From: Candidatus Magasanikiibacteriota bacterium
GTDB taxonomy: Bacteria; Patescibacteriota; Patescibacteriia; Magasanikbacterales; UBA922
Reading direction: 5' to 3'
Assembly (NCBI GenBank): GCA_003518365.1
Contig: DOYU01000021.1
Coordinates: 492-64,491 of the forward strand
DNA length: 64,000 bases
In this document: positions 11,733-36,692 of the stretch, piece by piece
How positions within the stretch are numbered: the stretch's first letter is position 1
Layout: each line of letters opens with the position of its first letter
Position numbers and translations under genes: made by a program
The notes under the pieces: model-generated
The model's input: only the letters and a program-made list of their open reading frames with translations
Told to the model about the DNA's origin: nothing
The model's database searches: none

Positions 11733-14399
11733 TTATGACAACGTATCTACCAATGAGTCTGCCAATCCAATATATTTTTCTGGTGTCAGTGTAAAAAGAA
11801 ATTGTTTGTCTTCTTCAGAAATATCAAGTGTTGCGACAAAATTCCTAATTGTTAGGCTATCAAGTCGTGTTCCCCTACTCAATTCTTTTAATCGTTCATA
11901 CGCATCCTGCTGTCCATACTTTCGCAACATGGTTTGGATTGCTTCGGTAACGATTTCCGGATGTGCCTGCAATTCTTGCACAAGCGCAGACTGATTTGGG
12001 GTAATCGTAGCCATTCCTTTTATCATACTTTTTACTGCCAAGAATGCATGCGCAAGTGCTACGCCTTGATTGCGTATCATTGTGCTTCCGCTAAGATCTC
12101 TTTGCATACGTGAGACTGGCAGATGCGTCGCCAATGTTGTAAACAATCCGTTGGCAAGAGCAATATTGCCTTCAGCATGTTCAAAGTGAATCGGATTTAC
12201 TTTATGCGGCATGGTACTTGATCCAACATGTTCTTTCTCTACCATTTGTCCAAACATTCCTCGACTAATATAGAGCCACATGTCTCGCGCCAGATCGAGA
12301 AGGATGGTATTTATACGAGAAACAATCTGATAACTTTCTGCAAGTGAATCATATGTATTGACTTGCGTCGTGAGCAGTAATTGTTCAAAGCCAAGGCTTG
12401 CAAGAAATGATTTGTGAAATCGAGGCCAGTCCACGTGCGCATCGAGTATCTGGTGTGCAGCAAACGTTCCTGTTGCCCCACTGCACTTTGCATCAAATGT
12501 CATGTTTGTAAGATTCGCACGCTGCTTTTTCAGTCTCTCTACAAAGACGGCAATTTCTTTCCCGACCGTAGTGGGTGTTGCCGCTTGTCCATGCGTGAGG
12601 GCAAGCATGGGGAGTCTCGCATGTGTCTTTGCAAATGTGGTTAGTGTGCTCATCAATCTATCAAGCGTTGGAACAAAGACCGTGCTCAGTGAATCACGCC
12701 AGAGTGACAGATATGCAATGTTATTGATATCTTCTGATGTCAGTGCGATATGAATAAAGGGAATTGCATGTGAAAGACCAAGCAATGGCAATCGTTCTTG
12801 CAAAAATATTTCAACGGCTTTTACATCATGATGAATCCTTTTTTCAATCTGTTTTACACGCGCAGCATCTTCGAGAGAAAACAATGTTGAAATGTTTCTA
12901 AGCTGCTCTTTTTGTATGTCTGAAAACGAAACCAACGCCGTGAAGGTTGTTTCTTCTGCGAGTGCAATAAGATATGCAATTTCAATATGCACACGAGAGC
13001 GAATCAATGCGTATTCTGAATGATATGCTGCAAGTTCTTGGACTTGTTCATAATATCGTCCGTCGATTGGGGAAATAGCAGTCAATGCGTTGTCAGCACC
13101 TTCTGCAAGATGTGAAGACAACACAACGGTTTCTGAACGCTTTGGACCAAATGACACAATACCGATCGGACACCCGACTTCTTTTTCTATGAAAGAGAGA
13201 TATGTCTGCACTGCAGGGTCAAATCCTTGCATCGTTGTTGGCATCTCGCCTGTGTACACCTGTTGCCATCCAGAGAGCGTGGTGTACACGGGCTGCGCCT
13301 TTCGCATGTCAGACAAACTTGCCGGCATTTCGTGAACAAGTTTTCCATCAATATAATACGCCGTACATACCTTCAATTCATCAAATCCATTCAAGACATC
13401 GAGCTTTGTAATTGCAATTTCAGTGAGTGGATGTACGCGGGCACTTTGCCTTACTTGCACCAAATCAAGCCAACCAATGCGACGCGCTCTCCCTGTCGTT
13501 GTCCCATATTCTTGTCCAAGTTCGCGGATACGGTCCCCGACCGAATCAGTCAATTCTGTCACAAACGGACTTGTCCCGACACGACTAACGTATGCTTTTA
13601 CCACACCGACAATCCGCTTTGGCGCATTGATGCCAAGTCCACTTCCGACTTCTGCGTGCGCTGCGACATTGTTTGAACTTGTCGTATGTGGATACAATCC
13701 ATGATCAGGATCGAGTGACATTCCTTGTGCTCCTTCAAAAAGGATACGTTTCCCTGCTGTATACGCGTGTGCGAGTTCCACTTCGGTATCAGCAATATAT
13801 TGTTTGAGTTGTTGTCCGTATGCAAGATATTGATTCGTGATTTCTTCTTTTGAAGATTGGAAGGTGCCACGAAGAACATTGGTAATCATGCCCACGTTGA
13901 AATCATACGCTTTGTCCAATTTTTCTCGAAACAGCTCTGGCTCGAGCAAATCGCCCATACGAATTCCATGGCGATACATTTTATCTGCATAGACCGGGGC
14001 AATACCACGCTTGGTGCTTCCGGCAGCGAGCGCACCCTGATGCCCAGAGAGTGCTTCATCCATGGCAATGTGATACGGCATGATGACATGCGCGCGTTCG
14101 CTGATAGCAAGTTTCAGTGGTCTACCGTTTTTTGTGATTTCTGCGATTTCTCCGAGAAGCACGCTGGGATCAATGACAACGCCATTTCCTATCACAGAAT
14201 GGGTGTGTTCAGATACCACGCCACAGGGCAACAGATGCAATTTGTATGTTTGTTCTCCAACGACAATCGTATGCCCAGCATTATTTCCTCCGTGAAATCG
14301 AACAACATACTCTGCATCACTCGCAAGCACATCTGTGATTTTTCCTTTCCCCTCATCCCCCCATTGAGCACCCACGACAACGGTTGTTTGTGGTTTCAT
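11733..14399 (-). CDS. Fusion protein: adenylosuccinate synthetase (N-terminal half) and adenylosuccinate lyase (C-terminal half)
   Basis: One uninterrupted 888-aa ORF. The N-terminal half carries PurA motifs (VVVGAQWGDEGKGKITD, GGNNAGHT, TTTGRARRIGWLD). After a roughly 12-aa linker (SSHLAEGADNA), PurB begins (LTAISPIDGRYYEQV...) and includes the fumarate-lyase signature GSSTMPHKVNP. Confidence 0.85.
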   Translation of the reverse strand: MKPQTTVVVGAQWGDEGKGKITDVLASDAEYVVRFHGGNNAGHTIVVGEQTYKLHLLPCGVVSEHTHSVIGNGVVIDPSVLLGEIAEITKNGRPLKLAISERAHVIMPYHIAMDEALSGHQGALAAGSTKRGIAPVYADKMYRHGIRMGDLLEPELFREKLDKAYDFNVGMITNVLRGTFQSSKEEITNQYLAYGQQLKQYIADTEVELAHAYTAGKRILFEGAQGMSLDPDHGLYPHTTSSNNVAAHAEVGSGLGINAPKRIVGVVKAYVSRVGTSPFVTELTDSVGDRIRELGQEYGTTTGRARRIGWLDLVQVRQSARVHPLTEIAITKLDVLNGFDELKVCTAYYIDGKLVHEMPASLSDMRKAQPVYTTLSGWQQVYTGEMPTTMQGFDPAVQTYLSFIEKEVGCPIGIVSFGPKRSETVVLSSHLAEGADNALTAISPIDGRYYEQVQELAAYHSEYALIRSRVHIEIAYLIALAEETTFTALVSFSDIQKEQLRNISTLFSLEDAARVKQIEKRIHHDVKAVEIFLQERLPLLGLSHAIPFIHIALTSEDINNIAYLSLWRDSLSTVFVPTLDRLMSTLTTFAKTHARLPMLALTHGQAATPTTVGKEIAVFVERLKKQRANLTNMTFDAKCSGATGTFAAHQILDAHVDWPRFHKSFLASLGFEQLLLTTQVNTYDSLAESYQIVSRINTILLDLARDMWLYISRGMFGQMVEKEHVGSSTMPHKVNPIHFEHAEGNIALANGLFTTLATHLPVSRMQRDLSGSTMIRNQGVALAHAFLAVKSMIKGMATITPNQSALVQELQAHPEIVTEAIQTMLRKYGQQDAYERLKELSRGTRLDSLTIRNFVATLDISEEDKQFLFTLTPEKYIGLADSLVDTLS

Positions 14400-14470
14400 A
14401 CTATTGCTAATTTACGTTGAACAGTGTCTCCAATATCTGCGTAATCATTTTATAATCAGTGTAATCCATG

Positions 14471-15913
14471 CTAGGTGATAGGATTGACATCATGCACACC
14501 ACTTTCTCGCGAACCAGCGCTGGTGATGCGCACAAATGTTACGTTTTCTTGCAGCTCGGCGATCGTGTGTGCATTGGTGTAGCTCATACCCGAGCGAAGC
14601 CCCCCAACAAGCTGATACACAATATCTGCCACCACACCTTTGTATGGCACGATTGACTCTACGCCTTCTGGCACCACGTGCGATAGTTCTTTTTGTTCTT
14701 GTCCTTTTTGCTGGCGTTTTTGCGCCTGAGTAAAGCTGGCACTACCGCGAGATATTTTGAATTTTTTATCCCCTTTTGTCATCACGACGCCCGGACTTTC
14801 TGCCGTGCCTGCAAACATACTGCCAATCATCACTGTGTCCGCGCCTGCGCCAATTGCTTTCACAATATCACCAGACGTTTTGATGCCACCGTCTGCGATC
14901 ACCGGAACGCCGTATGTTTTTGCCACTTTTGCGACTTCACTCACGGCAGTGAGCTGTGGCATGCCGCAACCGGTGACCAAACGAGTAATACAAATTGATC
15001 CAGGACCCACGCCAACTTTCAATGCATCAACACCTGCGTCACACAAATCTTTTGCCGCCTGCGCAGTTGCGATATTTCCGGCGATGAGTGGGGTGCCTGG
15101 CACGGCTTGTTTTAATGCTGCAATGGCATTGATCATGAGATCAGAGTGTCCGTGCGCGATATCAATCACGAGAACATCTGCGCCCGCTGTCACAACAGCT
15201 TTTGCTCGCTCGACAAAATCCCCATGCACGCCCACGGCAGCACCGACAATCAATCGTCCGTCTGTATCAAGATTTGCATCAGGAAAATCTACACTAAGTT
15301 TCATATCATCACTCGTAATAAGTCCGATAATGGTATTTTCTTCATCAACAAGTGGAAGTTTTTCTATTTTATGCCGTGCAAATATTGCTCGTGCATCTTC
15401 AAATGTTGTTTCTTTATTTCCAACAACAAGTTTTTCTCTTGGCGTCATAATCTGTGATACACGTGTATCACCATTTGGTGCATAGAGAAAATCTCGTCGT
15501 GATAAAATGCCAAGCAATTTTTTATCCGGACTTGCGACGAGCAGACCGGTGATGCCAATATCTGCGACATATTCTTTTGCAGAGGCAACGGTTTGATCTT
15601 GTTCTATGGTATAGGGATCTTCAATAATAAAATTTTGTGCGCGTTTTACACGCTTTACTTCTTCAACATTTTCTTCAATCGTATTGAAACGATGCAATAT
15701 ACCAATACCACCGAGGCGTGCCATGGCAATCGCCATGTCTGATCCTGTCACAGAATCCATGTTTGCTGTGACAATAGGTATGTTGATATCAAGCTGACGC
15801 GTCAATCTTGTTTTTGTCTGTGCATCGCTGCGAGAACTCAATGTAGAACGACGTGGGACGATGAGAACATCATCGTATGTGAGGGCAAATGGGATCTGCA
15901 TAGCAAAAGGCAT
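14471..15913 (-). CDS. guaB: IMP dehydrogenase
   Basis: FALTYDDVLIVP, a CBS pair, the catalytic loop VGVGPGSICITR, and GGIKTSGD. Start moved to ATG 15913 (MPFAMQIPF). Confidence 0.92.
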   Translation of the reverse strand: MPFAMQIPFALTYDDVLIVPRRSTLSSRSDAQTKTRLTRQLDINIPIVTANMDSVTGSDMAIAMARLGGIGILHRFNTIEENVEEVKRVKRAQNFIIEDPYTIEQDQTVASAKEYVADIGITGLLVASPDKKLLGILSRRDFLYAPNGDTRVSQIMTPREKLVVGNKETTFEDARAIFARHKIEKLPLVDEENTIIGLITSDDMKLSVDFPDANLDTDGRLIVGAAVGVHGDFVERAKAVVTAGADVLVIDIAHGHSDLMINAIAALKQAVPGTPLIAGNIATAQAAKDLCDAGVDALKVGVGPGSICITRLVTGCGMPQLTAVSEVAKVAKTYGVPVIADGGIKTSGDIVKAIGAGADTVMIGSMFAGTAESPGVVMTKGDKKFKISRGSASFTQAQKRQQKGQEQKELSHVVPEGVESIVPYKGVVADIVYQLVGGLRSGMSYTNAHTIAELQENVTFVRITSAGSRESGVHDVNPIT

Positions 15914-16097
15914 AAAAAAACCACCAATTGGCGGCGTGTATACTAAAACGACATCTGCATGAATCCTCCTGTGTAGGATCGTGATTTCTTCATAGCAGAA
16001 GTATCGTAGCATGTTTCTTTTTTGTGGGCAAATACTCGACGAGAAAAGTTATCCGCAGTATACTGATGTGCAGAGCAGCCACAAAAGGAGGTCGCTC

Positions 16098-16397
16098 ATG
16101 CCCGACAATGCACAAAGCAGTGCCAATGGCGATACCCTTAGAGGGAATCCCTACATCGCCCGTGAACATGTCATCCTAAACCCTACAGATCCAAACTACG
16201 GAGGACGTCCCATCCCGAGGATCTGTGATCACTGCGTATTCCAACGCCGTGTGGGTACGACCAAGTACTCTGGTTGTTTGGTGGCCCACCAAAGGCCACT
16301 GACTGCCTTCCAGATCACGCAAGGTGATATACCTGATGTGCTTGATGGCAAACAGGTGGGGAACTACTGCACTTCATGGACACGTGTCGCACGCTGA
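16098..16397 (+). CDS. Hypothetical protein (GC-rich singleton)
   Basis: ATG 16098 is preceded by AAAGGAGG at ideal spacing. 99 aa with no recognisable family. Visibly higher GC than its neighbours and followed by a GC-rich hairpin. Confidence 0.5.
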   Translation: MPDNAQSSANGDTLRGNPYIAREHVILNPTDPNYGGRPIPRICDHCVFQRRVGTTKYSGCLVAHQRPLTAFQITQGDIPDVLDGKQVGNYCTSWTRVAR

Positions 16398-16411
16398 GCA
16401 GACACGCGCGC

Positions 16412-16483
16412 GCGCCGGTGAGTCTCGTACTCACCGGCGCAGCGCATCAAAAAAAGATGACACATTTGTGCATCTCTTTTTTT
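16412..16483. terminator. Two consecutive hairpins; the second is a bidirectional terminator
   Basis: GCGCCGGTGAGT-ctcgt-ACTCACCGGCGC (16412-16440), then AGATGACACA..TGTGCATCT flanked by an A-run and a T-run (16449-16483). Located between convergent genes. Confidence 0.6.
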
Positions 16484-16503
16484 ATATATACTCTTCCGCT
16501 TTT

Positions 16504-17505
16504 TTATTTTTTTGGTTGCAATGTATCTTGAATGAGCGCCCAATATCGATTGTCATCTTTTTGCGTTTTCATAAAGTACCACCACTCCACACCCCAAAAA
16601 TATACACGAGATGCACCAATGCGTGACGCATAGGAAATATTGTCTGCAAGAAATACCGGATTCATGGTCTGTTCCATGTCTTCGATCGTTGTATCAAGTG
16701 GTGTGCTGTCGGTAAACCATGGCTCTGCTTGCAATTCTGAAACAACAAATTGATCGTGTGGCTTATCCCACAGCGCTGCTTTCAAACGGTAAAAACCTGC
16801 TGGCAGCCACTTGTATGAAAAAATCATACCACCAGGTGTGCGTACTCGTCGATATAATGTAGTTCCTAATACATCTCCAAGTTTGCTTGGTCTTCGCCAT
16901 GATGCGAGTTCTCCACTATCTGTCATAACAATCTTACGATCAGGATCAAGGTGTTGAACCAACGCAAGTTCAGAGTAGACAGCCTCTTGATCAAACCTCG
17001 CACAGTCCCCAAATGCAAATCGGATAAACGCTTCGTTTTCTACTTGCCACAATTCAAGCGCTGGATGATCTTGATAGCGTTCTACAACCGTGCGGACATA
17101 GGCAAGCAGCTTTGTGCGATATGATTCTTGTTCAATACCATTGACCCATGCAGGGACATGGCACTCAGGCCAGCGTGGAGCTTTTTGTCCTACGACCAAC
17201 ATGACTTTCACATTATAGGTTGCTGCTTCTTCCATCATCCAGTCCACATTTGAAAAGTCATACGTACCTTCTTCACTCTCAATATCACTCCACATGGCAG
17301 CAATCCTGATATAGTTTGGATGCAGGTCAGTCAGCATTGCTTGATATGCCTGTCGCCAGTCAAGCCCGAGAGATGTTGCATGGTCAGGACTAAAACTAAT
17401 GCCATAGCCGACGTCGTACGTTTTGTGACTATAGGACCAGAAGACGATCCACAGTGCAAGTGCGATGAGAAGTATTGTGGCAAGAGTATATCCGAGGAGT
17501 TTCAT
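16504..17505 (-). CDS. Membrane-anchored TIM-barrel glycoside hydrolase (GH5/GH42-like clan A); family uncertain
   Basis: N-terminal TM segment and a WQVENE acid/base-type motif typical of clan GH-A. Start set at ATG 17505, because the track start at 17532 is a TTG inside a hairpin. Confidence 0.5.
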   Translation of the reverse strand: MKLLGYTLATILLIALALWIVFWSYSHKTYDVGYGISFSPDHATSLGLDWRQAYQAMLTDLHPNYIRIAAMWSDIESEEGTYDFSNVDWMMEEAATYNVKVMLVVGQKAPRWPECHVPAWVNGIEQESYRTKLLAYVRTVVERYQDHPALELWQVENEAFIRFAFGDCARFDQEAVYSELALVQHLDPDRKIVMTDSGELASWRRPSKLGDVLGTTLYRRVRTPGGMIFSYKWLPAGFYRLKAALWDKPHDQFVVSELQAEPWFTDSTPLDTTIEDMEQTMNPVFLADNISYASRIGASRVYFWGVEWWYFMKTQKDDNRYWALIQDTLQPKK

Positions 17506-21411: not shown

Positions 21412-21482
21412 GGGCGCATCGTATAGTGGTAGTACATTGGTCTCCAAAACCAATTGCGTGGGTTCGATTCCTACTGCGCCTG
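21412..21482 (+). tRNA. tRNA-Trp (anticodon CCA)
   Basis: Folded by hand into a cloverleaf: acceptor GGGCGCA/TGCGCCT, anticodon stem TTGGT/ACCAA, loop CTCCAAA, T-arm GTGGG-TTCGATT-CCTAC. CCA is not encoded. Confidence 0.9.
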
Positions 21483-21538
21483 CACTGGAAAACATACCAA
21501 AAATAAGGTATGTTTTTATAGATAATAGAATAAACGAT

Positions 21539-22092: not shown

Positions 22093-22176
22093 ACCAAAAA
22101 TTGGATAATGTTTCTATAATAATATACTATATATGATAATCAAGAATATATTATTCAAGATTAATAGATATAGATT

Positions 22177-22827
22177 ATGTATAGAAAAGGAGAAGTCATA
22201 GGTGTCGGGAATGACAAACGCATATATGCTGACGCAATAACTCCTGAGACAAGAGTTATTGCTGAATTTCGCAAGGAACAAACACCTGAAGAAATAAAGA
22301 GTGTGTACTATCTTGGGAACATAGCTCATATATTATTCCCTCAAAATGTACCCAAAGTATATGAAGCAGGGATGCATCCACAAGAACATACGAAAGTAGA
22401 AAGAAAAAAGGTGGATGTCAATCATAAAAATACGGCTGATCTCATGGTGACATACGAAGATTATTTCATGGGAGATGGTGAAACGGGACCTTCTTCAGAA
22501 GAAGATAGTGAGATGGATGTAGATATAGAAAAAAAAGAAACCGATCCAAGAGTAAAACAACTTTTAACAAAAGCGTCTTCTGTCGGATTATATTTTGATA
22601 CAGGCGGACAAAATTTTTCTTTTGACGATTTGGGTACTGTCCAATATCTTGAAGTGAATCCAGCATTTCATATAGAAAAAAACCACGTCCGTTTGCACTT
22701 CAACGAAAGCAAATTAAGAGATGCCATACAAGCATTAGAAAATGAAAAAGAGAAAAAAAAGGCTACACTATATTTCGAACGATTGATGTCTTTGATCCAA
22801 GTAGCACAAAATAATCTTATACAATAG
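22177..22827 (+). CDS. Hypothetical protein; possible atypical kinase-like fold (YrbL-like); weak
   Basis: Glycine-rich loop-like VIGVGNDKRIY near the N-terminus and LYFDTGGQNFSF resembling a kinase catalytic loop, read by eye only. Very AT-rich. Confidence 0.45.
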   Translation: MYRKGEVIGVGNDKRIYADAITPETRVIAEFRKEQTPEEIKSVYYLGNIAHILFPQNVPKVYEAGMHPQEHTKVERKKVDVNHKNTADLMVTYEDYFMGDGETGPSSEEDSEMDVDIEKKETDPRVKQLLTKASSVGLYFDTGGQNFSFDDLGTVQYLEVNPAFHIEKNHVRLHFNESKLRDAIQALENEKEKKKATLYFERLMSLIQVAQNNLIQ

Positions 22828-22913
22828 TTCCAACTTCCTCCTTCCTCTACGATCCCCTGCACCTCCTGCAGTAGCTCCTGCCGGCAGGCAGGTTAGCGAA
22901 GGCACGGCACTTG

Positions 22914-22948
22914 AAAAACAGAGTGAAAAACACTCTGTTTTTCTTTTT
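22914..22948 (+). terminator. Intrinsic terminator
   Basis: AAACAGAGTG-aaaaa-CACTCTGTTT followed by a T-rich run. Confidence 0.65.
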
Positions 22949-23002
22949 GACATGAAGGGAAGAACGGAGTATTGTACAAGTAAACATATACATTATATTG
23001 GT

Positions 23003-23212
23003 ATGGCTCATCAAAAAAATACAATCGGAAAAAACATCAAACGATTACGGCAAGAACAAAAAATTTCCCAAGATCGTCTTTCAAAACTTGCGGATCTTTC
23101 TTTGAATACTATTGTTACCGTTGAAAGTGGCGCAAACGAAAATCCTACTATTGATACGCTCACAAGGATTGCGAAAGCGTTTCAAGTTGGCGTGGATGAC
23201 CTCATAACATAA
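23003..23212 (+). CDS. XRE-family helix-turn-helix transcriptional regulator (69 aa)
   Basis: IGKNIKRLRQEQKISQDRLSKLADLSLNTIVTVESG is a canonical HTH_3. Start set at ATG 23003. Confidence 0.85.
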   Translation: MAHQKNTIGKNIKRLRQEQKISQDRLSKLADLSLNTIVTVESGANENPTIDTLTRIAKAFQVGVDDLIT

Positions 23213-23220
23213 CACCCACT

Positions 23221-24198
23221 ATGTCTAAACAAACACCTACCAATAATCTCGCTATCTACCAAGCTAAAAACGGCGCGATTGAATTTCGCGGTGATTTTGA
23301 GCAAGAGACGGTTTGGGGAAATTTAAATCAAATTGCCGATCTTTTTGGTCGCGACAAGTCCGTTGTTTCCCGCCATATAAAAAACATCTATAAAACAGGC
23401 GAATTAAACGAAACGGCAACTGTTGCAAAAATTGCAACAGTTCAAAAGGAAGGAAGGAGAGAAGTGATGCGTGAAATTGAGTACTTCAACCTTGATGTTA
23501 TTTTGTCCGTTGGGTACAGAGTAGATTCCAAGCAAGCCACGCAATTCCGCAAATGGTCAACGCAAGCGCTCAAGGCACACCTTGTAGACGGGTATACCAT
23601 CAACAAAAAACGCATCGGTAATAACTACGAACACTTTTTGCGTGCAGTGGCAGAAACAAAAGCACTCCTCCCTGTGGGCAACAAGGTTTCTACCGAGGAT
23701 ATACTTGAACTCGTGAACGCATTTGCTGCTACGTGGTTTTCGCTCGATGCATATGACAAAGACGCATTTCCTCAAAAAACAGCCTCAAAAAAGTCAGTTT
23801 CAGTTGACACTGTAAAGCTACTCAATGCGATTGGTGAGTTGAAGCAAGAACTGATAACCAAAAAGCAAGCAACAAACCTATTTGCACAAGAAAGGAAGAC
23901 GGGAACAGTAGAAGGAATCGTCGGAAATGTATTTCAGTCTGCCTTTGGCAAAGATGTATATCCAAGTATAGAAGAAAAGGCCGCACACATCCTCTACTTC
24001 ATGGTAAAAAATCATCCATTCACCGATGGCAACAAGCGCAGCGGAGCCTTTGCATTTGTTTGGTTTCTACGAAAAGCTGGTTTACTCCGACCAAGTCTTA
24101 CTCCAGAAGCGTTGACTGCCATTACCCTCCTCATTGCAGAGAGTAATCCAAAAGATAAAGACAAAATGGTGGGACTAGTGGTGATGTTAATCAAATAA
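23221..24198 (+). CDS. RhuM-family N-terminal domain fused to a Fic/Doc domain
   Basis: N-terminus: QIADLFGRDKSVVSRHIKNI ... YFNLDVILSVGYRVDSKQATQFRKW, the RhuM family pattern. C-terminus: HPFTDGNKRSGAF, which matches the Doc-type core HxFx[DN][GA]NKR. Confidence 0.8.
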   Translation: MSKQTPTNNLAIYQAKNGAIEFRGDFEQETVWGNLNQIADLFGRDKSVVSRHIKNIYKTGELNETATVAKIATVQKEGRREVMREIEYFNLDVILSVGYRVDSKQATQFRKWSTQALKAHLVDGYTINKKRIGNNYEHFLRAVAETKALLPVGNKVSTEDILELVNAFAATWFSLDAYDKDAFPQKTASKKSVSVDTVKLLNAIGELKQELITKKQATNLFAQERKTGTVEGIVGNVFQSAFGKDVYPSIEEKAAHILYFMVKNHPFTDGNKRSGAFAFVWFLRKAGLLRPSLTPEALTAITLLIAESNPKDKDKMVGLVVMLIK

Positions 24199-24200
24199 CT

Positions 24201-25322
24201 ATGGCAAATAAAAACCTTACAAAAGCAAAAAAGGCAAAAAATGATGAATTTTATACTCAATTTTCAGATATTCAAAAAGAAGTTGAGTCTTATCTTGAGT
24301 ATAACCCAGATACTTTTAAAGATAAGATAATTTACAGTAATTGTGACGACCCGTTCGAAAGTAATTTCTTTCGCTATTTTGTATTAAATTTTGATCGTTT
24401 AGGACTAAAGAGACTTATTTCAACGAGCTACAAACCCTCACCTGTTGCCAATACGCAACTGGGATTATTTGGCGATGACAAAACACTTGAAAAAGTAAAA
24501 GGCCGTCCAAAAGTAACCGCTAACAAATTCATCATCAACGAAGTTGGCGATATCGACGGCGACGGCTCTTTTACGCTAGAAGATATTGCCCAACAGCTTC
24601 GAGCGAATAAAAATAACGAATGGACTCCGCTTGAGGGCGATGGTGATTTTAGAAGTGCCGAATGTGTCGAGTTGCTCAAACAATCTGACATCGTAGTTAC
24701 TAATCCTCCATTTAGTTTATTCCGTGAATATATTACGCAACTTTTCGAACACAAAAAGCAATTTCTAATTATTGGTAGCATGAACTCAATTACTTACAAA
24801 GAAATCTTTGTGTTGATTAAAAATAATAAATTGTGGTTAGGTAATGGGTTTAATGCTGGCAATGCATATTTTTCAACTCCCAATGCGCGAAAAGATTTTG
24901 CTTCTGGTGTGTATGATGAAAAAACTGGTCTTGTAAAATTTCGGAATTGTCATTGGTTTACTAATTTAGATCATGGTCGTCGTCATCAGCCTCTTAATCT
25001 GATGACAACAAATGAAAACCTAAGATTTAATAAAAAAATGCAAGGCAAAACTACTTATGATCGTTATGACAATTATGACGCTATTGATGTACCATTTACA
25101 AAAGCTATCCCTTCTGACTACGAAGGAGTAATGGGTGTTCCTATAAGCTTTCTCGATAAGTACAATCCTAATCAGTTTGAGATATTGGGCTCTGACACAG
25201 ACATAAAAGAAGGTAAACTTCCACTTTTAATAATAAGTAAATGGAATGGAAAGCTAGACAGAGGTTATATACATGGAAAGAGAATCTTCAGTAGAATGTT
25301 TATTAAGCACAAAAAGAAATAA
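24201..25322 (+). CDS. N6-adenine DNA methyltransferase, EcoRI-methylase family
   Basis: N-terminal [16 protein letters not shown]...[18 protein letters not shown] and catalytic motif [12 protein letters not shown]. It begins 2 nt after the previous stop codon. Confidence 0.8.
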
Positions 25323-25323
25323 T

Positions 25324-26487
25324 ATGAAAACAACCTTAAAAAATGATATCACCGTTAAAGAAGTTTGCGACGGCTTTGAATACAACGAATTTGAAGGAAA
25401 AGGTTTGTTTGGTCTCTCTGGCAAACTAACTATTCAGCCAGAGTATCAGCGTAATTATATTTATGCTGACGGCAAACGTGACGTTGCTGTAATTGACTCA
25501 ATTTTAAAGGGTTATCCTATCGGTTTGATCTATTTCAATCAGGCTGGTAAAGACGAGTTTGAAGTATTAGATGGTCAACAGCGCATCACGAGTATAGGTC
25601 GTTTTGTTACTGGCAAATTTGCTGTTAAAGATAAAAACGGTCACGAGCAATACTACAGCGGTATGTCTGAGAGTCAGCGTGAGCAAATTATGAAGACTAA
25701 GTTGTTGGTGTATGTGTGCGAAGGTGACGAGCCTGAGATCAAAGATTGGTTCAAGACTATTAACATTGCTGGAGTGCCATTAACTGAACAAGAGATTCTT
25801 AACGCGGTATATTCTGGGCCATTCGTTACTCGAGCTCGTGAAGAGTTTAGTAATAGTCAAAATACCAACATCCAGAAATGGAGTGCGTACATCGCAGGTG
25901 ATATCAAGCGTCAGGCATACTTGGAACGAGCTCTAGATTGGGTTTCTGATGGATCAATCGATAGTTATATGAGCAAACACCGCAATGACAAAAATATTAC
26001 TGAACTAAAAAAACATTTTGATACTATCATTGACTGGGTCTCAACTATCTTTACTGACGTTGAGAGCGATATGAAAGGCCTTGAGTGGAACAGGATTTAT
26101 GAGACATATCACAAGAAGAAATACAATCCGACTACCATCTCTGCTTCTGTTCAGAAGCTCTATGCTGATGGTTTCGTAAAAAGTCGCAAAGGCATTTTTG
26201 AATATGTTTTAGGCGGAGAAGTTGAAACTAAACTACTTGAAATACGAGTATTTGAGGACTCAACAAAACGTTCAGTTTACGAAGCTCAAACTGCTATTGC
26301 AAAGAAAAAAGGTGTTTCAAACTGTCCACATTGTGCTATTGGGCATGATGCCAATAAAGAAAAAATTTGGACTTTAAGCGATATGGATGCTGATCATGTG
26401 GCTGCTTGGAGTAAAGGTGGAAAAACGGAAGCAAAAAACTGTGAGATGTTGTGTAAAACGCATAATCGTGCCAAAGGTAATCGGTAA
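25324..26487 (+). CDS. DUF262 (ParB/GmrS-like NTPase) fused to an HNH endonuclease
   Basis: N-terminus: IQPEYQRNY ... [10 protein letters not shown], the DUF262 hallmark. C-terminus: CPHCAIG...[12 protein letters not shown]...[15 protein letters not shown], the HNH motif. Start set at ATG 25324, 1 nt after the methyltransferase stop codon. Confidence 0.8.
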
Positions 26488-26493
26488 AATATT

Positions 26494-27987
26494 ATGCACC
26501 TCACAAAAACCGACTATCTCGAATATACCTTTTGCAAAAAGAACCTTTGGCTCAAAAAACATAAGCCAGAGCTTTTTGAAGATGTAGAATTGTCGGAATT
26601 TGAAAAAAAAATTATTGAGGAAGGGAATTTGGCTGATGAGGCTGCAAGAAATTTATTTCCTGATGGAGAATTGATCGGTATCGTCGGAGTAAATGCTATA
26701 CCTGTTACAAAAAAGATACTGGAGAAAAACCCACCAGTATTATTTCAAGGTGCATTTTCATTCAATGACTTTTTTGTTCAAGCGGATATTTTACGTTACA
26801 ACGACATTTTAAAGGGTTGGGAACTTTACGAAGTAAAAGCAACAAATGATGTAAAACGAGAAATCCCTCATCACCATATCAACGACCTTGCGTTTCAAAA
26901 AATTGTAATTGAACAAAATGGGATACACATTATAAAAGCAGGCGTTATTCACCTTAACGGCGAATATAGACAACGAGGCAAAGTAAACTATAACGAACTG
27001 TTCATCATTGCCGAGCTTACTGATGAAGTACTAGAAGCGGAAGAACTTGTACGTGGGCAGATGCGTGATATTCACACATATATGGACATGGCAGAAGAAA
27101 AAAATTGTGAATGTTTGTATCGAGGTAGAAATGCACAATGTACAACGTTCGCTTACTCTAATCCTGAAGTGCCTGAATACTCTGTTCACGATATCAATAG
27201 AATTGGCGGAAGCAAAAAACTGTTTTTTGACTGGATAGATAGAGGGATCTACCGGCTCGAAGATATAGATAACCCAGAAAATCTTACAGGATCAAAAAAG
27301 GCACAATATACTGCGTACATAACAGGTAAGCCTCTCATAGACAAAGAAGCAATACAAAAAGAACTTGGTGAATTGGTTTTTCCTCTCCAATTTTTTGATT
27401 ACGAAGGATATTCTAGTGCTATCCCCAGCTTTAACGGCTTCGGTGCGTATGAACAAGTGCCTTTTCAATATTCACTACATACGCTCCATGAAGACGGAAC
27501 GCTTGAACACCGAGAATATCTCATCACAGAGCCAGAGAATGATTTGACTTTGCCATTGGTAGAAAGAATGAAAGAAGACTTTGATGATGTTGGTACTGTC
27601 ATATCTTGGTACAAATCATACGAATCACAACGAAACGACAAACTAGCAGAACTTCATCCAAATCATGCAGACTTTCTTATTGGCCTCAATGACAGAATGT
27701 TTGACCTCATGACAATGTTTTCCAAAAATTATTATGTGGATGCACGGTTCAAAGGGAGTGCAAGCATAAAAAATGTTCTGCCGGTCATTGTACCGGAATT
27801 AACGTACAAAGTACTTGGTATTCAAAAAGGAGATCAAGCAGTAGAACGTTGGGAAAAAATGATATTTGCAGATATTCATCCAGATGAAAAGAAAGAAATA
27901 AAAAAAGATTTGCTTGAGTATTGCAAATTGGATACTTTGGCGATGGTGAGGATTTGGGAGTTTCTAATGAAAATAAAAAATGTATGA
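26494..27987 (+). CDS. DUF2779 family protein (N-terminal PD-(D/E)xK/Cas4-like nuclease, C-terminal DUF2779)
   Basis: MHLTKTDYLEYTFCKKNLWLKKHKPE...FPDG, ELYEVKA (ExK), and FFDYEGYSSAIPSFNGFGAYEQVPFQYSLH, the DUF2779 hallmark. Confidence 0.75.
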   Translation: MHLTKTDYLEYTFCKKNLWLKKHKPELFEDVELSEFEKKIIEEGNLADEAARNLFPDGELIGIVGVNAIPVTKKILEKNPPVLFQGAFSFNDFFVQADILRYNDILKGWELYEVKATNDVKREIPHHHINDLAFQKIVIEQNGIHIIKAGVIHLNGEYRQRGKVNYNELFIIAELTDEVLEAEELVRGQMRDIHTYMDMAEEKNCECLYRGRNAQCTTFAYSNPEVPEYSVHDINRIGGSKKLFFDWIDRGIYRLEDIDNPENLTGSKKAQYTAYITGKPLIDKEAIQKELGELVFPLQFFDYEGYSSAIPSFNGFGAYEQVPFQYSLHTLHEDGTLEHREYLITEPENDLTLPLVERMKEDFDDVGTVISWYKSYESQRNDKLAELHPNHADFLIGLNDRMFDLMTMFSKNYYVDARFKGSASIKNVLPVIVPELTYKVLGIQKGDQAVERWEKMIFADIHPDEKKEIKKDLLEYCKLDTLAMVRIWEFLMKIKNV

Positions 27988-29219
27988 ATATGCACAGCCC
28001 TCTTTCTTCAATTCAACAACTACAATCAATATTAAGTAGTCCTTCGAAAAAAATCGGATTCCTTTTTGGGGCTGGAATTTCAATGGAAAAAAAAGATAAG
28101 AGTGATTTGGTGGTAGGAACTGATGACAAAAAAGATGAGAACGGTAATGTAATAAAAGAAGGAATGACAAGTCTCGCAATTAAAAATTTATCAGAGGAAC
28201 AAAAAAAAGCTGTAGATTTAATAAAGAATGAGGTTGAAACAGAAAATAAAAAATTTAACATCGAAAGTCTCTTATCAAAAATTTCTGAAAAAGAAAGAGC
28301 TGTTGGCGATCAAGAGCTTTGTGGTTTAACAAAAGAAAAATTATTAAATTTGAGAAAGGATATACAGGATAAAATAAGAGATTTGGTTTCCGTACATAGG
28401 GTGGATGATAAAGAAATTGATATTGAGGCATTAAATCACAGCACATTTGCTCAATGGATTAGTAATGCTGATAGAGAATTCTCAGTAGAAATTTTTACAA
28501 CAAATTACGATTATCTACTAGAACTAGCACTTGAAAAACAAGGAATTCCCTATTTCGATGGTTTTGTGGGTAGTTATGAAGCATTTTTTTGCCCTGAATG
28601 GATTGAAGATGACACGCCTGTCAAAAATTGGGTAAAGCTATGGAAATTACATGGTTCACTTGGTTGGGCACAGAATAGTAAAAAAGAAATAATTAGAACA
28701 TCTGGTAATACCGGTGCGGCGATGATATACCCTTCATTTTTGAAATATGACCATTCCAAAAAACAGCCATACTTGAGCTATATGGATAGATTGTCCGATT
28801 TTTTAAAGCAAGAAGATTCTGTCTTATTTGTTTGTGGTTATTCATTTGGAGATGAACATATAAATGAAATAATTTTGACAGCACTTACGCACTCTCGCTC
28901 ATCACATGTATTTGTGTTGAAAAATGGAGAAATGGAAAAATCTAGCCATCTTTCAAAAGAAATTGCACAAAAAAATTCTAGAATTTCAGTTTATGCAAAA
29001 CGTACCTGTATTATTGGAGGTAAATTTGGAGAATGGAAGCTCGATAGAGAACCAGACAGAAATGAATCCTACAACATATTAGATTATGCTTTTGATGAAG
29101 ACGCTACACCTGATGGAGTACCATGGACAGGAAGAGGTGATTTTCGTCTTGGAGACTTTAAAAAATTTACGGAGTTTTTAGAGCTTTTCTACCATAATTC
29201 GAGATATATCAATAAATGA
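27984..29219 (+). CDS. SIR2-like (SIR2_2) NAD-binding defence protein
   Basis: IGFLFGAGIS, FTTNYDYLLE, KLHGS and CGYSFGDEHIN. The start ATG 27984 overlaps the DUF2779 stop codon (ATGA). Confidence 0.8.
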   Translation: MNMHSPLSSIQQLQSILSSPSKKIGFLFGAGISMEKKDKSDLVVGTDDKKDENGNVIKEGMTSLAIKNLSEEQKKAVDLIKNEVETENKKFNIESLLSKISEKERAVGDQELCGLTKEKLLNLRKDIQDKIRDLVSVHRVDDKEIDIEALNHSTFAQWISNADREFSVEIFTTNYDYLLELALEKQGIPYFDGFVGSYEAFFCPEWIEDDTPVKNWVKLWKLHGSLGWAQNSKKEIIRTSGNTGAAMIYPSFLKYDHSKKQPYLSYMDRLSDFLKQEDSVLFVCGYSFGDEHINEIILTALTHSRSSHVFVLKNGEMEKSSHLSKEIAQKNSRISVYAKRTCIIGGKFGEWKLDREPDRNESYNILDYAFDEDATPDGVPWTGRGDFRLGDFKKFTEFLELFYHNSRYINK

Positions 29220-29220
29220 C

Positions 29221-30999
29221 ATGAGAAATAAAGAGACATTTATAGGTAAAGTGAGAAGTGTCACAGGTAGTACGCTTGCTATTGAGTTACACGAAGATAT
29301 TAGATCAACGTTACCTATTATTGATGGGATATTATATAGAATTGGACAAATTGGTTCTTTTATAAGAATTCCTTTTGGTTATGTTGATTTATATGGAGTA
29401 ATTACACAAGCTGGATCAGACGCTATACCAGAAAAATTAGCGGAGCAAGAGGGTTTGAAAGGATCTCGCTGGATTAAGGCTACTCTTATTGGAGAAAGGG
29501 TCGGTAATAGATTTGAAAGAGGGGTGTTGCAATTTCCTATTGCTGATGACGAAGTTCATTTGGTCACGAAGGATGATTTGGAATTGATATATGGTGGAAT
29601 TGATGAATCAAAGTCAATAGTAGTTGGACAGGTCAGTGCCTCTGAAAATCTGTCAGCAAGAATAGATATAGACAGATTAATTAATAGACATTGCGCCATA
29701 CTTGGCTCTACAGGAAGTGGAAAATCAAATACAGTTTCTGTAATACTAGAAGCAATTGCTTCTAGACATCATGATGATGAAAATATAAAAAGTACGAGAA
29801 TTCTTTTGGTCGACCCTCATGGTGAGTATGGCGATATTTTAAAAAATTATAGTCAAATATTTAAGTTAGGAGCAGACTTGTCAAAAGGAGAAAAAGAACT
29901 AGTTGTTCCATATTGGGCTTTACCTTTTCAAGAATTTATAAAAAGTTTTCCAGGTAATCTAACTGAAAAGCAGGAAGAGTACATACGTGAAGAAATTCTA
30001 CAAAGAAAGATTAAGGCTTCTAAAAAATTAAATCCTATTCCACAAGAGGAGGCAATTACAGCTGATAGCCCTATCCCTTTCAGTATTAAACAACTATGGT
30101 TTGACCTTATTGATATAGAGCAAAAAACTTTTAATAACAAGGAGTTAACCGAAGTCGCACTCGAATCACTAGGCGATCCTGAGGCACTTAAGCCTAACAA
30201 ATACTCCATAGCGTCAACAAATAATACAGCCCCTTTCAGTAATAACAGGGTTGCGCAGGGTATTTCAAGTTTTTTAAACTTAATGCGGAATAGAATTTTA
30301 GATCAAAGATTTAAGTTTTTATTCAAACTAGACACGCTCTCTCCTGGTATTGACGGAACTATTTCAAGTGATTTAGACAGTCTCATTGAAAGTTGGATTG
30401 GGACAGAGAAACCAATAACTATTTTAGACCTATCGAGTATACCCTCTGAAATCATGGGTTCAATTTCTGGTTCTTTGCTTTCAATAATTTATGAATTTCT
30501 ATATTGGGGACAGAATGAAGATGTGGGAGGTCGCCAAACACCTATTCTGTTTGTACTAGAAGAGGCACATAATTATCTAAAGTCAGGCGAGAATTCTATT
30601 GCCTCAAGAACTGTACAAAAAATTGCAAAAGAGGGTAGAAAATATGGTTCAGGTTTACTACTCGTAACCCAACGACCTTCTGAACTGGATGATACTGTTT
30701 TGAGTCAATGTGGTTCAGTTATCGCGTTGAGAATGACAAATTCTAGCGATAGAGGCCACGTAAAGAGTGCTGTCGAGGATTCCCTAAACGAGTTAGTTGA
30801 TTTGCTTCCGAGCCTAAGAACAGGTGAAGGTTTAATTATGGGTGAATGTGTAAAATTACCTATGCGAACTAAATTTTCTAAAACTAGGGAATCTAAAAGT
30901 ACAGACCCACTTGTTTCTAAGCAGTGGAAAACAACTCTTCCAGAATCCTCTAACTATAATAAAGTTTTAGAAAATTGGAGAAATAATAAATTTTCTTAA
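29221..30999 (+). CDS. HerA-like (DUF87) FtsK/HerA-clade ATPase
   Basis: Walker A ILGSTGSGKSNT, Walker B ILFVLEEAHNYL, GRKYGSGLLLVTQRPSEL. It begins 1 nt after the SIR2 stop codon. Confidence 0.85.
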   Translation: MRNKETFIGKVRSVTGSTLAIELHEDIRSTLPIIDGILYRIGQIGSFIRIPFGYVDLYGVITQAGSDAIPEKLAEQEGLKGSRWIKATLIGERVGNRFERGVLQFPIADDEVHLVTKDDLELIYGGIDESKSIVVGQVSASENLSARIDIDRLINRHCAILGSTGSGKSNTVSVILEAIASRHHDDENIKSTRILLVDPHGEYGDILKNYSQIFKLGADLSKGEKELVVPYWALPFQEFIKSFPGNLTEKQEEYIREEILQRKIKASKKLNPIPQEEAITADSPIPFSIKQLWFDLIDIEQKTFNNKELTEVALESLGDPEALKPNKYSIASTNNTAPFSNNRVAQGISSFLNLMRNRILDQRFKFLFKLDTLSPGIDGTISSDLDSLIESWIGTEKPITILDLSSIPSEIMGSISGSLLSIIYEFLYWGQNEDVGGRQTPILFVLEEAHNYLKSGENSIASRTVQKIAKEGRKYGSGLLLVTQRPSELDDTVLSQCGSVIALRMTNSSDRGHVKSAVEDSLNELVDLLPSLRTGEGLIMGECVKLPMRTKFSKTRESKSTDPLVSKQWKTTLPESSNYNKVLENWRNNKFS

Positions 31000-31010
31000 T
31001 TATTAAACAT

Positions 31011-33897: not shown

Positions 33898-33922
33898 ATA
33901 TTTTTGTATCAAACTGTTACTA

Positions 33923-33945
33923 AGCACCCGATCGGGTGCTTTTTC
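33923..33945 (+). terminator. Intrinsic terminator inside the proA leader (candidate attenuator)
   Basis: AGCACCC-GATC-GGGTGCT followed by TTTTT, 22 nt upstream of the proA ATG. Leader segment CGGGTGT (33887-33893) can alternatively pair with GCACCCG (33924-33930). Confidence 0.5.
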
Positions 33946-33966
33946 TTACTTCTCTTATATTCATCT

Positions 33967-35148
33967 ATGAAGACTGAACAAAAAAACAATGTCCTCACCT
34001 CCCTCGCCACATTACTCCGAGAGCAAACGGATGCCATCTTACACGCCAATACACAGGATCTCGACAATGCGTCTGATATGGATACAGCATTGCGCGAGAG
34101 ATTGGCACTCGATGCTACAAAAATTCAAAGCATGATTACGTCGATTCACACCATTCTGACACTGCCAGATCCTGAACAAAAAATCATTTCTGCATACACG
34201 CATGACAATGGCCTCGTGATAAAAAATATGACTGTGACTTTTGGCACGATCTTGATTATCTATGAATCACGTCCGGATGTGACGATAGAGGCATCCGCGC
34301 TCGCCTTCAAAGCAGGCAACACGGTACTGCTGAAAGGTGGAAAAGAATCTCTCCATACCAATCTCGCTCTCATCGATCTCTGGCACAAAGCATTGTCTAT
34401 ACATGATATTGATACGTCATATGTAACATATCTCGATATGGACAGAGATGACACGCAATCACTCATTGCAAACAACACACATGATGTTGATCTCATCATT
34501 CCACGCGGCGGCGAAGGGTTGATTTCGTTTGTAGAAACACATGCAAGCGTGCCAGTCCTCGTGAGTGGGCGCGGCAACAATTTTCTCTATCTTGATAGTG
34601 ACGCGGATATCGACATGGCAATTGATATTATAAAAAACGGAAAATCGCGCATAAGCGTGTGCAATGCACTTGATAAAGTATTGATCAATGAGCAGGTGTC
34701 TGACGAACATATCCGCATGATCACATCCACAGTGCATGATGCTGGCATTGCGCTCCTCGGCGACGAACACATTGTAGCAATTGATGAACGCGTGATGCGC
34801 GTCGAAGATATGGAAGCAATTCTCAAAAAAGAATTTCTTTCTGCGACGCTCTTTCTTCACGTGGTAGACACTCTCGACACAGCAATATATATGATCAATA
34901 CCTATTCTGGCGGACATTCAGCAAGCATCGTCTCAAACAATGCTGCACACGCGGACACATTTCAACAGCAGGTTGACTGTGCTGCCGTCTATCACAATGC
35001 ATCATCGCGTTTTACGGATGGCGGACAATTTGGACTTGGTGGAGAAATCGCAATCAGTACTCAAAAGCTCCACTGTCGTGGTCCCATCGGACTCGATAGT
35101 CTTGTGACAAATAAATGGTTCATCACTGGAACCGGACAAATTAGATAA
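33967..35148 (+). CDS. proA: Gamma-glutamyl phosphate reductase
   Basis: IYESRPDVT, GNTVLLKGGKES, IPRGG and YHNASSRFTDGGQFGLG. Start set at ATG 33967. Confidence 0.9.
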   Translation: MKTEQKNNVLTSLATLLREQTDAILHANTQDLDNASDMDTALRERLALDATKIQSMITSIHTILTLPDPEQKIISAYTHDNGLVIKNMTVTFGTILIIYESRPDVTIEASALAFKAGNTVLLKGGKESLHTNLALIDLWHKALSIHDIDTSYVTYLDMDRDDTQSLIANNTHDVDLIIPRGGEGLISFVETHASVPVLVSGRGNNFLYLDSDADIDMAIDIIKNGKSRISVCNALDKVLINEQVSDEHIRMITSTVHDAGIALLGDEHIVAIDERVMRVEDMEAILKKEFLSATLFLHVVDTLDTAIYMINTYSGGHSASIVSNNAAHADTFQQQVDCAAVYHNASSRFTDGGQFGLGGEIAISTQKLHCRGPIGLDSLVTNKWFITGTGQIR

Positions 35149-35155
35149 CCGTATT

Positions 35156-35923
35156 ATGAAAAGAAAAAAAATCGTCCTCAAACTTGGCACATCGACCCTC
35201 ACAGCAGGCAGCACCCATATCTCGTATGGAAAACTGGAAGACATTGCAAGACAACTACTCGCCTTGCGTGACACGTATGATATTATCGTTGTTTCTTCTG
35301 GTGCGATCGCCACAGCAAAACAATTTGTGTCTCTCTCCGGCAATGGCAACACCGTTGAATTGAAGCAGGCACTCTCAGCGATTGGCCAGCCAAAATTGAT
35401 GAGTATGTATGACGAAGTGTTTGAAAAGTTTGGCTTACACATGGCGCAGTGTCTGCTCACAAATCGCGATATTGACCACGATGTCTCACGAACAAACATA
35501 AAAAATACGCTTGATGTGTTGCTTGCAAATGGATACACACCTATCATCAATGAAAATGATACAGTCGCCATCGAAGAAATTATGTTTGGTGACAACGATG
35601 CACTTGCTGCACACGTGGCCGTGATCGCCGAGGCAGACTTGGTCGTGCTTGCATCAGACGTGGATGGCTTGTATGATCGAAATATACACATAGATAAAGA
35701 TGCCATCCTTATCACCGAGGTGTCAGATTTGCAATCTGTCGAATCATACATTGGAGAAAGTACGACAACACTCGGCACCGGTGGCATGAGATCAAAATTA
35801 AAATCAGTTGAAATTTGTAGAAACGCGGGCATTGAAGTCTGGATTGTGAACGGTCAAAAACAAAACTTTCTTGTCGATGCACTCGAACATAAGATTCAAT
35901 TCACTACATTTACCACCACCTAA
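35156..35923 (+). CDS. proB: Glutamate 5-kinase (short form, no PUA domain)
   Basis: IVLKLGTSTLT, VSSGAIA, INENDTVA, GDNDALAA and GTGGMRSKL. Confidence 0.9.
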   Translation: MKRKKIVLKLGTSTLTAGSTHISYGKLEDIARQLLALRDTYDIIVVSSGAIATAKQFVSLSGNGNTVELKQALSAIGQPKLMSMYDEVFEKFGLHMAQCLLTNRDIDHDVSRTNIKNTLDVLLANGYTPIINENDTVAIEEIMFGDNDALAAHVAVIAEADLVVLASDVDGLYDRNIHIDKDAILITEVSDLQSVESYIGESTTTLGTGGMRSKLKSVEICRNAGIEVWIVNGQKQNFLVDALEHKIQFTTFTTT

Positions 35924-35924
35924 T

Positions 35925-36692
35925 ATGAAACATGGATTTATTGGATTTGGGAATATTGCGCACGCCCTCCATGCAGGATTGCAAAAAAATCAAGACAACA
36001 CATTCAAATATATCTCAAAGAGTACGCCAAACGAGAATCTCGATGCGGCAAAGAATATTGGTGACCTCGCAGAATGGGCAGATGTGATTTGGCTTTGCGT
36101 GAAACCACAACAAGCAGCCGAGGTTCTCTCTGAACTGCGCGGCGCAGATCTCTCAAACACGATCGTTGTCTCCCCTATTGCCGGAGTAAAGATCTCAACA
36201 CTGCAAGAAACACTCGGCACAGATATGCCTCTTGTCAGAATTATGCCAAATCTTGCCTTGCAGTACGGACATTCTGTCACTGCGTTTTGTGCGAGTGAGA
36301 TGGATGATGATGTGAAAAAAGTGTACGTTGCACTCGAAACCATGGGCATTGTATTGCATCTGACTGAAGACAAATTTGATCTGTTCACTGCCCTGTTTGG
36401 CAGTGGCCCAGCATTTTTGCTCCGCGTGTTGAACGTCTTTCAAGAGCAAGCCATTGTCTTGGGAATTTCTGAGCAAGAAGCTGCATCACTGGTATTAACA
36501 TTACTGAAAGGGACTACTGCATATCTAGGTGAAAACAAAGAGCAAAGTATCACAGAACTCATTGCACAAGTCGCAAGTAAAGGCGGCGTGACAGAAGCTG
36601 GATTGCACTATTTTGATGACCATCATATAGCGCAGTCATTTCAAGATATGATCTCAATTGCAAAGGAACAATCTGCACGTCTGGGGACGTAA
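35925..36692 (+). CDS. proC: Pyrroline-5-carboxylate reductase
   Basis: FIGFGNIAHAL Rossmann motif, CVKPQ, GSGPAF and ASKGGVTEAG. Start set at ATG 35925. Confidence 0.88.
   Translation: MKHGFIGFGNIAHALHAGLQKNQDNTFKYISKSTPNENLDAAKNIGDLAEWADVIWLCVKPQQAAEVLSELRGADLSNTIVVSPIAGVKISTLQETLGTDMPLVRIMPNLALQYGHSVTAFCASEMDDDVKKVYVALETMGIVLHLTEDKFDLFTALFGSGPAFLLRVLNVFQEQAIVLGISEQEAASLVLTLLKGTTAYLGENKEQSITELIAQVASKGGVTEAGLHYFDDHHIAQSFQDMISIAKEQSARLGT

Follow-up and report, generated by a model that had tools for sequence, protein, structure and literature searches.

Adenylosuccinate synthetase (PurA) and adenylosuccinate lyase (PurB) are both textbook enzymes. PurA must dimerise to be active and needs an arginine of its partner subunit (R143 in E. 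coli), and PurB is an obligate tetramer whose active sites are composed from several subunits. In E. coli PurA, the functional residues are D13, K16, N38, H41, R143, Q224, T300/T301/R303/R305 and the (N/T)KxD guanine motif. In E. coli PurB, H171 is the general acid and S295, in the GSSxMPxKxNP loop, the general base. A 2024 review counts the PurA step, in bacteria as in mammals, among those with a monofunctional enzyme (PMC10912719). A natural PurA-PurB fusion was not described in the reviews and papers that were searched in full text. In this study, we analyzed a 64-kb stretch of DNA (64,000 nucleotides (nt) of contig DOYU01000021.1, hereafter the window) from a groundwater Candidatus Magasanikbacteria bacterium of the candidate phyla radiation (CPR)/Patescibacteria, in which the two enzymes share one open reading frame (ORF), purA::purB. 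Sequence comparison indicates that purA::purB is a genuine natural gene fusion and not an artefact. Its product is very probably a bifunctional enzyme that converts inosine monophosphate (IMP) to adenosine monophosphate (AMP), arisen by loss of a stop codon between abutting genes. The fusion is an architectural novelty built from well-known enzymes, already present in public databases, under-annotated, and one of several convergent fusions. It is biochemically ordinary and implies no new chemistry.

One reading frame for PurA and PurB

The preliminary description of this DNA had reported a single-frame PurA-PurB fusion of 888 amino acids with a linker of about 12 residues. The single frame was borne out, with both domains complete, both equivalog cut-offs passed and no stop codon between them. 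The linker counted about 10 residues instead of 12. Inspection of the DNA showed that the junction reads ...SFGPKRSETVVL-SSHLAEGADN-ALTAISPIDGRY... without a stop. The coordinates are given in Table 1.

Table 1. Coordinates in the window of the fused gene, its parts and its upstream neighbour
Feature	Position	Strand	Details
purA::purB ORF	11733..14399	minus	888 amino acids, ATG start, no internal stop; stop codon 11733-11735
PurA (adenylosuccinate synthetase) domain	13119..14399	minus	residues 1-427; PF00709 + PRK01117
Inter-domain linker SSHLAEGADN	13089..13118	minus	residues 428-437, about 10 residues
PurB (adenylosuccinate lyase) domain	11736..13088	minus	residues 438-888; PF00206 + PF08328 + PRK09285
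guaB (IMP dehydrogenase, CBS pair)	14471..15913	minus	480 amino acids from ATG at 15913; longest ORF to 16012
Spacer, guaB stop to purA::purB start	14400..14470	minus	71 nt

The Pfam profile Adenylsucc_synt (PF00709) matched residues 7-425 over its full length (1-416/416, E 4.7e-159), Lyase_1 (PF00206) matched residues 447-743, and ASL_C (PF08328) matched residues 763-877. Among the NCBIfam models, the purA equivalog PRK01117 scored 527.7 bits against a cut-off of 402 (residues 5-430), and TIGR00184, also for PurA, scored 460 bits against 395.55. The purB equivalog PRK09285 scored 568.3 bits against 446 (residues 437-887). TIGR00928, the model for the other, B. subtilis-like PurB subtype, scored 322.1, slightly below its cut-off of 326.2. 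Both enzyme families have functionally divergent members, and one half could be a diverged paralogue, either a PurZ-like 2-aminoadenylosuccinate synthetase or another lyase of the fumarase/aspartase superfamily. However, the PurZ model NF038379 reached only 125.6 bits against a cut-off of 300, the pcaB, argH, fumC and aspA models all scored far under their cut-offs on the fused ORF, and both the passed purA and purB equivalogs and the ASL_C domain speak for the standard enzymes. A paralogue in either half is hardly credible.

The PurA half aligned end to end with B. anthracis 4m0g (query 5-427 to chain 6-426, E 8e-122) and with E. coli 1ade (E 5e-109). Its motifs GDEGKGK (14-20), GGNNAGHT (37-44), DKMYRHGIR (139-147), FEGAQG (221-226), TTTGRARR (300-307) and TKLD (331-334) were intact, and DKMYRHGIR contains the arginine equivalent to E. 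coli R143. The PurB half aligned over its full length with Legionella 3bhg (E 2e-120) and E. coli 2pts (E 3e-112), and SPIDGRY (443-449), TSEDINN (554-560), THGQAATP (602-609), GSSTMPHKVNP (726-736) and SRMQRDLSGS (763-772) were intact. The preliminary description had named a C-terminal half without PurB catalytic residues as a point against the fusion. All of these residues were present in the alignment: H603 corresponds to E. coli H171 and S727 to E. coli S295, as confirmed on the 2pts numbering, and the signature loop is kept.

Structure prediction, which had been proposed as a check, was performed on the monomer with AlphaFold2 (AF2) from an input alignment of 59 sequences, and the model was compared by Foldseek. 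The mean predicted local distance difference test (pLDDT) was 90.9 for the 888-residue protein. The PurA half superposed on 4m9d_A with a target template-modelling (TM) score of 0.96, a root-mean-square deviation of 1.8 A and 47% identity, and the PurB half on 2ptr with a target TM score of 0.94. No PDB chain spanned both halves; the query-normalised TM score was at most 0.49, and the PDB matches were all 380-482 residues long. Linker residues 430-433 had pLDDT below 50, that is, they are predicted to be disordered. The AF2 model is thus one of two well-folded domains on a flexible tether with no confident interface. With cut-offs passed, catalytic motifs kept and predicted folds matched, both halves are probably functional.

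The exact 888-residue product occurred on 16 contigs. The assemblies behind them are independent, come from NCBI and ENA and cover different samples; they include GCA_000998635.1, GCA_001000125.1 and several ENA re-assemblies. Its NCBI records (KKS52285.1, KKT03874.1, KKT25731.1 and HCC14005.1) are named 'Adenylosuccinate synthetase [Candidatus Magasanikbacteria bacterium ...]' and do not mention the PurB half, so automatic metabolic reconstructions may score purB as missing. The same uninterrupted in-frame fusion was present in two species-representative genomes from another aquifer, Magasanikbacteria CG_4_10_14_0_8_um_filter_42_12 (locus L007) and CG_4_10_14_0_2_um_filter_41_10 (locus L008), whose fusions are 78-79% identical to the window protein. 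Among these three species, the ratio of nonsynonymous to synonymous substitution rates (dN/dS) was 0.06-0.10 for the PurA half and 0.11-0.14 for the PurB half, values that are only approximate because dS, which exceeds 1, is saturated. In the linker, the window shared only 20% identity with L007/L008, but length and frame were kept, and dN/dS was about 1.5-2 on very few sites. The identical protein on 16 contigs, the open frame in L007 and L008, and purifying selection on both halves around a drifting linker therefore indicate that the fusion is old, inherited and maintained.

An assembly, sequencing or frameshift artefact would have joined two genes wrongly in the contig. In closely related species, separate purA and purB genes lie within 0-40 nt of each other, where one base error could mimic a fusion, and among the database 'fusions' at least P0080 seems to be a frameshifted read-through. 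However, the identical product on 16 independent contigs, the frame that stays open across a diverged linker of equal length at another site, and the strong purifying selection on both halves make an artefact extremely improbable.

The ORF could also be fused while the cell holds two proteins, through internal initiation near the PurB start or proteolysis of the linker. The linker is predicted to be disordered and is unconstrained in sequence, and there is an in-frame TTG at residue 440 (L440). Against this, full-length fusion is the default product of a frame without a stop codon, and the junction DNA has no ribosome-binding sequence recognisable by eye. Linker length and frame are kept in three species at dS above 1, which would be unexpected if the join were irrelevant. 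We consider two separate proteins very unlikely.

Relatives and the path to fusion

Scanning one genome for each species gave 80 loci, and each junction was re-examined by frame. Only L007 and L008 were truly fused. Two Clostridia loci from metagenome-assembled genomes (L059/L060), which the locus finder had returned as full-length matches, turned out to be pairs of genes with 8 nt between them. L009-L016 were also rejected as fusions.

The nearest relatives of both halves are the unfused pairs at L009, L010, L011, L013, L014 and L016, with 64-67% identity for PurA and 51-55% for PurB. These pairs share gene order and strand with the window, and most also have guaB upstream. They differ in that a stop and a start codon are kept, at a spacing of -4 to +183 nt. 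At L014 the stop and start overlap in ATGA (-4 nt), at L010 TAA is directly followed by ATG (0 nt), and the spacing is 17 nt at L011, 42 nt at L009, 178 nt at L013 and 183 nt at L016.

A full de novo purine operon headed by purA is present in other, more distant Magasanikbacteria. In L033 it reads folD-purA-purL-purM-(purQ-purC-purE triple fusion)-purB-purF; the PurQ-PurC-PurE triple fusion (L033:15454-18120) is, by coincidence, also 888 amino acids long. L010 has folD-purA|purB, the head of an L033-type operon with the internal genes gone. The comparative series thus runs from folD-purA-purL-purM-purQCE-purB-purF through folD-purA|purB and guaB-purA-purB to the fusion. Full operon, internal gene loss, abutting or overlapping genes and single ORF form a clean natural series, all in living relatives.

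A bootstrapped neighbour-joining (NJ) analysis of concatenated PurA and PurB (859 columns, 200 replicates) supported the fused clade at 100% and the monophyly of all adjacent and fused loci at 87%. The successive grouping of the fused clade with L014 and L010 was supported at 96% and 87%, and the topologies of the PurA-only and PurB-only trees were congruent.

The simplest reading, inferred from this comparison, is a three-step route. In an ancestral operon, purA and purB would have bracketed the de novo purine genes. Loss of the genes between them would have brought the two together, the remaining purA and purB would then have become tightly coupled in translation, and in one sub-lineage the purA stop would have been lost. 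Translation would then run on through about 27 nt between the genes, and the linker probably derives from the former stop codon and a short spacer of about 24 nt. The former PurB start codon would have become an ordinary residue (MSLTALSP in L014 and NALTAISP in the window).

Several observations weigh against our reading of the fusion and its origin. The phylogeny is by NJ only, and it places the fused clade as sister to L009, L011, L013 and L016 with a modest 67%. The saturation of dS mentioned above belongs here, as does the AF2 model, whose predicted TM score (pTM) of 0.60 leaves the inter-domain geometry without confidence. The slot at L012 differs despite shared flanks (GuaB 92%, CAP-domain protein 75%, permease 78%). 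At this locus (L012:10001-13445, MNVD01000013, Magasanikbacteria CG1_02_41_34), a 67%-identical purA is followed by a 713-residue HAD-PurB fusion whose PurB is of a different, divergent type (37% identity). What lies between guaB and the CAP-domain gene has therefore been replaced at least once, and simple vertical descent does not explain everything.

PurA 56-66% identical to that of Magasanikbacteria was also observed on contigs labelled Candidatus Neomarinimicrobiota or 'uncultured Gammaproteobacteria' (L027, L029, L038, L042, L043, L046, L048, L049, L055; L010, L015, L017, L023, L024, L026). On several of them it lies in the purA-purL-purM operon, with purA leading the de novo genes. These are either mis-binned or mislabelled CPR contigs or cases of horizontal operon transfer.

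Other fusions and possible assembly of the protein

We combined a word-indexed search with an exhaustive search of 1.84 billion representatives at 50% identity. Both domains were found in only about 8 representatives among the best 150 matches listed. Fusions with a combined domain score above about 335 bits should be listed, and fusions with B. subtilis-type PurB may be under-counted. In the domain trees, the PurA+PurB fusion has at least six independent origins, because the groups fall apart in both the PurA and the PurB tree. The database search proposed in the preliminary description returned a rare architecture, in which the AMP branch of purine synthesis is fused in both domain orders.

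The order PurA-PurB (A-B) was found in the window clade (window, L007, L008), in P0002, which adjoins relA/spoT, and in P0028/P0031. Most groups have the order PurB-PurA (B-A). These are P0006/P0008/P0121/P0122, with P0008 in a purBA-NUDIX-guaB arrangement (L090:7001-11563); P0005, from Candidatus Microgenomates (MBI3887608.1); P0010, in dcd-purBA followed by an IMPDH-family gene without CBS (L092:8001-11733); P0013/P0015 with P0003/4/7/9/11, the latter five carrying a C-terminal HAD domain; and the P0062 family, from Coprobacillus sp. CAG:698 (CCY08302.1), with 144 member sequences and an ADSL_C-type PurB. P0012 has the order Ham1-B-A, with Ham1 (ITPase) at the N-terminal side. Like the window protein, the fusions outside the window clade carry the same two enzymes in one polypeptide with short linkers. 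They differ from it in identity (at most 45%), mostly in their reversed order, and in some cases in extra domains. Two independent B-A fusions beside IMPDH-family genes indicate that linkage to the IMP branch point is recurrent.

Several further observations concern these contigs. The A-B fusion of P0028 (L091:5634-8276) and P0031, with 33-35% identity per half, is of independent origin and lies on an AT-rich contig whose other genes include a pair of dynamin-like GTPases, one class-I tRNA synthetase and numerous ORFans. The contig brings to mind a giant virus or a host of an unusual kind; no relatives of P0028/P0031 were found in IMG/VR, and a giant-virus origin is neither supported nor refuted. 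The P0003 contig is probably archaeal, since aIF5A and AsnC-type helix-turn-helix regulators are neighbours. The HAD domain has been joined to PurA/PurB in separate lineages (P0003/4/7/9/11; L012). The closest PurA relatives include PurA-PurL (P0014) and PurA-PurM (P0016-P0023) fusions. The high-GC P0080 was not counted, its junction looking like a frameshift read-through. In clustering at 90% identity, the cluster of the window protein is represented by a 112-residue fragment (P0268), and the cluster itself was absent from the match list of the representative library. Cluster-level surveys can therefore miss the purA::purB fusion.

The fusion may have been selectively neutral, a side effect of compaction. 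The genomes of CPR bacteria are compact, an ATGA overlap and a zero-nt gap occur in relatives, and the same phylum holds other purine-gene fusions (PurQ-PurC-PurE, PurA-PurL, PurA-PurM and HAD-PurB). Against this, the fusion was retained in three species with saturated synonymous divergence, and its recurrent independent origin in unrelated lineages suggests tolerance at least and possibly advantage. Neutrality is possible, if doubtful, and cannot be separated from our preferred reading, a maintained bifunctional enzyme, by sequence data alone.

In the bifunctional enzyme, the PurA domain would form adenylosuccinate from IMP, aspartate and guanosine triphosphate, and the PurB domain would split it into AMP and fumarate, which would place the whole IMP-to-AMP branch on one polypeptide. 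The benefit may be a 1:1 stoichiometry and co-localised activities. Since PurB sites are composite and PurA needs its partner's arginine, the fusion must oligomerise at least through PurB. Four PurA domains tethered on a PurB core may then dimerise readily, with the core serving as a scaffold.

The fusion might instead exist so that adenylosuccinate is truly channelled across a defined interface between the domains. One step directly follows the other, at least six fusions arose independently, and the tether lies only about 15 residues from the conserved N-terminal SPIDGRY motif of PurB, which lines the active site in the E. coli and human structures. However, AF2 gave no confident interface, with a low pTM and a disordered linker. 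The occurrence of both A-B and B-A orders, together with inserted extra domains, argues against a specific tunnel geometry, and adenylosuccinate is a stable intermediate. Channelling through a defined interface is therefore unlikely as the reason for the fusion. A sealed channel is likewise unlikely in light of the predicted disorder of the linker, the low pTM and the two domain orders in nature, and any kinetic gain would come from proximity.

PurA::PurB is a ready test case for whether the fusion of a dimeric and a tetrameric enzyme brings channelling or assembly-driven regulation. A more speculative picture, which we regard as distinctly unlikely, has D2 tetramer-forming and C2 dimer-forming domains on a 10-residue tether build a closed particle of about 390 kDa or an open polymer. 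This would be a minimal natural 'AMP-branch metabolon' in which proximity favours channelling and PurA is activated on assembly. In the same picture, convergence in reduced-genome lineages (CPR bacteria, archaeal-looking contigs and gut Firmicutes) could mark a PurB freed from its de novo role on succinylaminoimidazole carboxamide ribotide (SAICAR). What makes the system most attractive is that its path to fusion can be traced in full, together with the problem of assembling a dimer on a tetramer.

The guaB neighbour, the window and known systems

The preliminary description had placed purA::purB directly downstream of guaB, and this holds, on the same strand and across a short gap (Table 1). 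GuaB matched TIGR01302 with 506.6 bits against a cut-off of 481.5, together with PF00478 and two CBS stretches, and the 480-residue gene call is present in one NCBI assembly (L003). The fused gene is probably co-transcribed with guaB, which encodes the first enzyme of the guanosine monophosphate branch. Co-expression with IMP dehydrogenase would put both exits from IMP under common control. Promoter and terminator signals in a scan of 9-17 kb were as frequent as expected by chance, so operon boundaries are drawn from spacing alone. No Rfam match was found near guaB and purA::purB, either in the whole window at the gathering threshold or in 14380-16520 at E of 1 or below.

Between a glycosyl hydrolase gene and guaB, about 590 nt (15914-16503) hold no convincing gene. 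A GC-rich hairpin followed by a T-run lies at 15935-15920 on the minus strand, immediately 5' of the guaB ATG at 15913. Rfam gave no match to it; a leader or attenuator is conceivable, as is simply a terminator belonging to a transcript that has not been annotated.

As the preliminary description had stated, de novo purine genes were not found within the 64 kb, by Pfam or by tblastn with FolD, PurL, PurM, PurQCE and PurF. Its view of the locus as an IMP-centred module was also supported. The guaB-purA-purB neighbourhood is kept in sister species and IMPDH-family genes recur beside two B-A fusions, which makes 'IMP branch-point module' an apt name. The salvage reading, which draws on this one 64-kb window, is plausible as a hypothesis; other Magasanikbacteria do carry the de novo pathway.

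Three other regions of the window were recorded. Directly after tRNA-Trp (21412-21483), the GC content falls to 0.33-0.39 at about 22100-31000, compared with about 0.45 around it. This block encodes Fic/RhuM, an EcoRI-type methylase, GmrSD, DUF2779, SIR2_2 and a HerA/DUF87 ATPase, and looks like an integrated defence island that includes a SIR2-HerA-like pair. At about 33900-36700, proA (Aldedh), proB (AA_kinase) and proC (P5CR) make up a complete operon for the synthesis of proline, which is notable for a lineage that is usually considered to make few amino acids. The ORF at 53420-54700 gave no record in an exact-sequence look-up.

Compared with known systems, the PurA half is 42-47% identical to monofunctional PurA (B. 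anthracis 4M0G/4M9D, E. coli 1ADE) and shares its P-loop, IMP, aspartate and GTP motifs. The monofunctional enzyme ends there, whereas the C-terminus of the window PurA runs without a stop into PurB. The PurB half is 41-44% identical over its full length to E. coli/Legionella-type PurB with ASL_C (2PTS, 2PTR, 3BHG), with TM scores of 0.94-0.95, and it retains H171, S295 and the signature loop. It differs in that its N-terminus is tethered to PurA about 5 residues ahead of SPIDGRY. SAICAR cleavage by this PurB may be dispensable if the genome is without de novo synthesis. PurH/ATIC, the trifunctional GART and PAICS likewise carry enzymes of one pathway in one chain (see also PMC10912719). Those fusions cover steps before IMP and none of them is known to unite both steps of the AMP branch, as purA::purB does.

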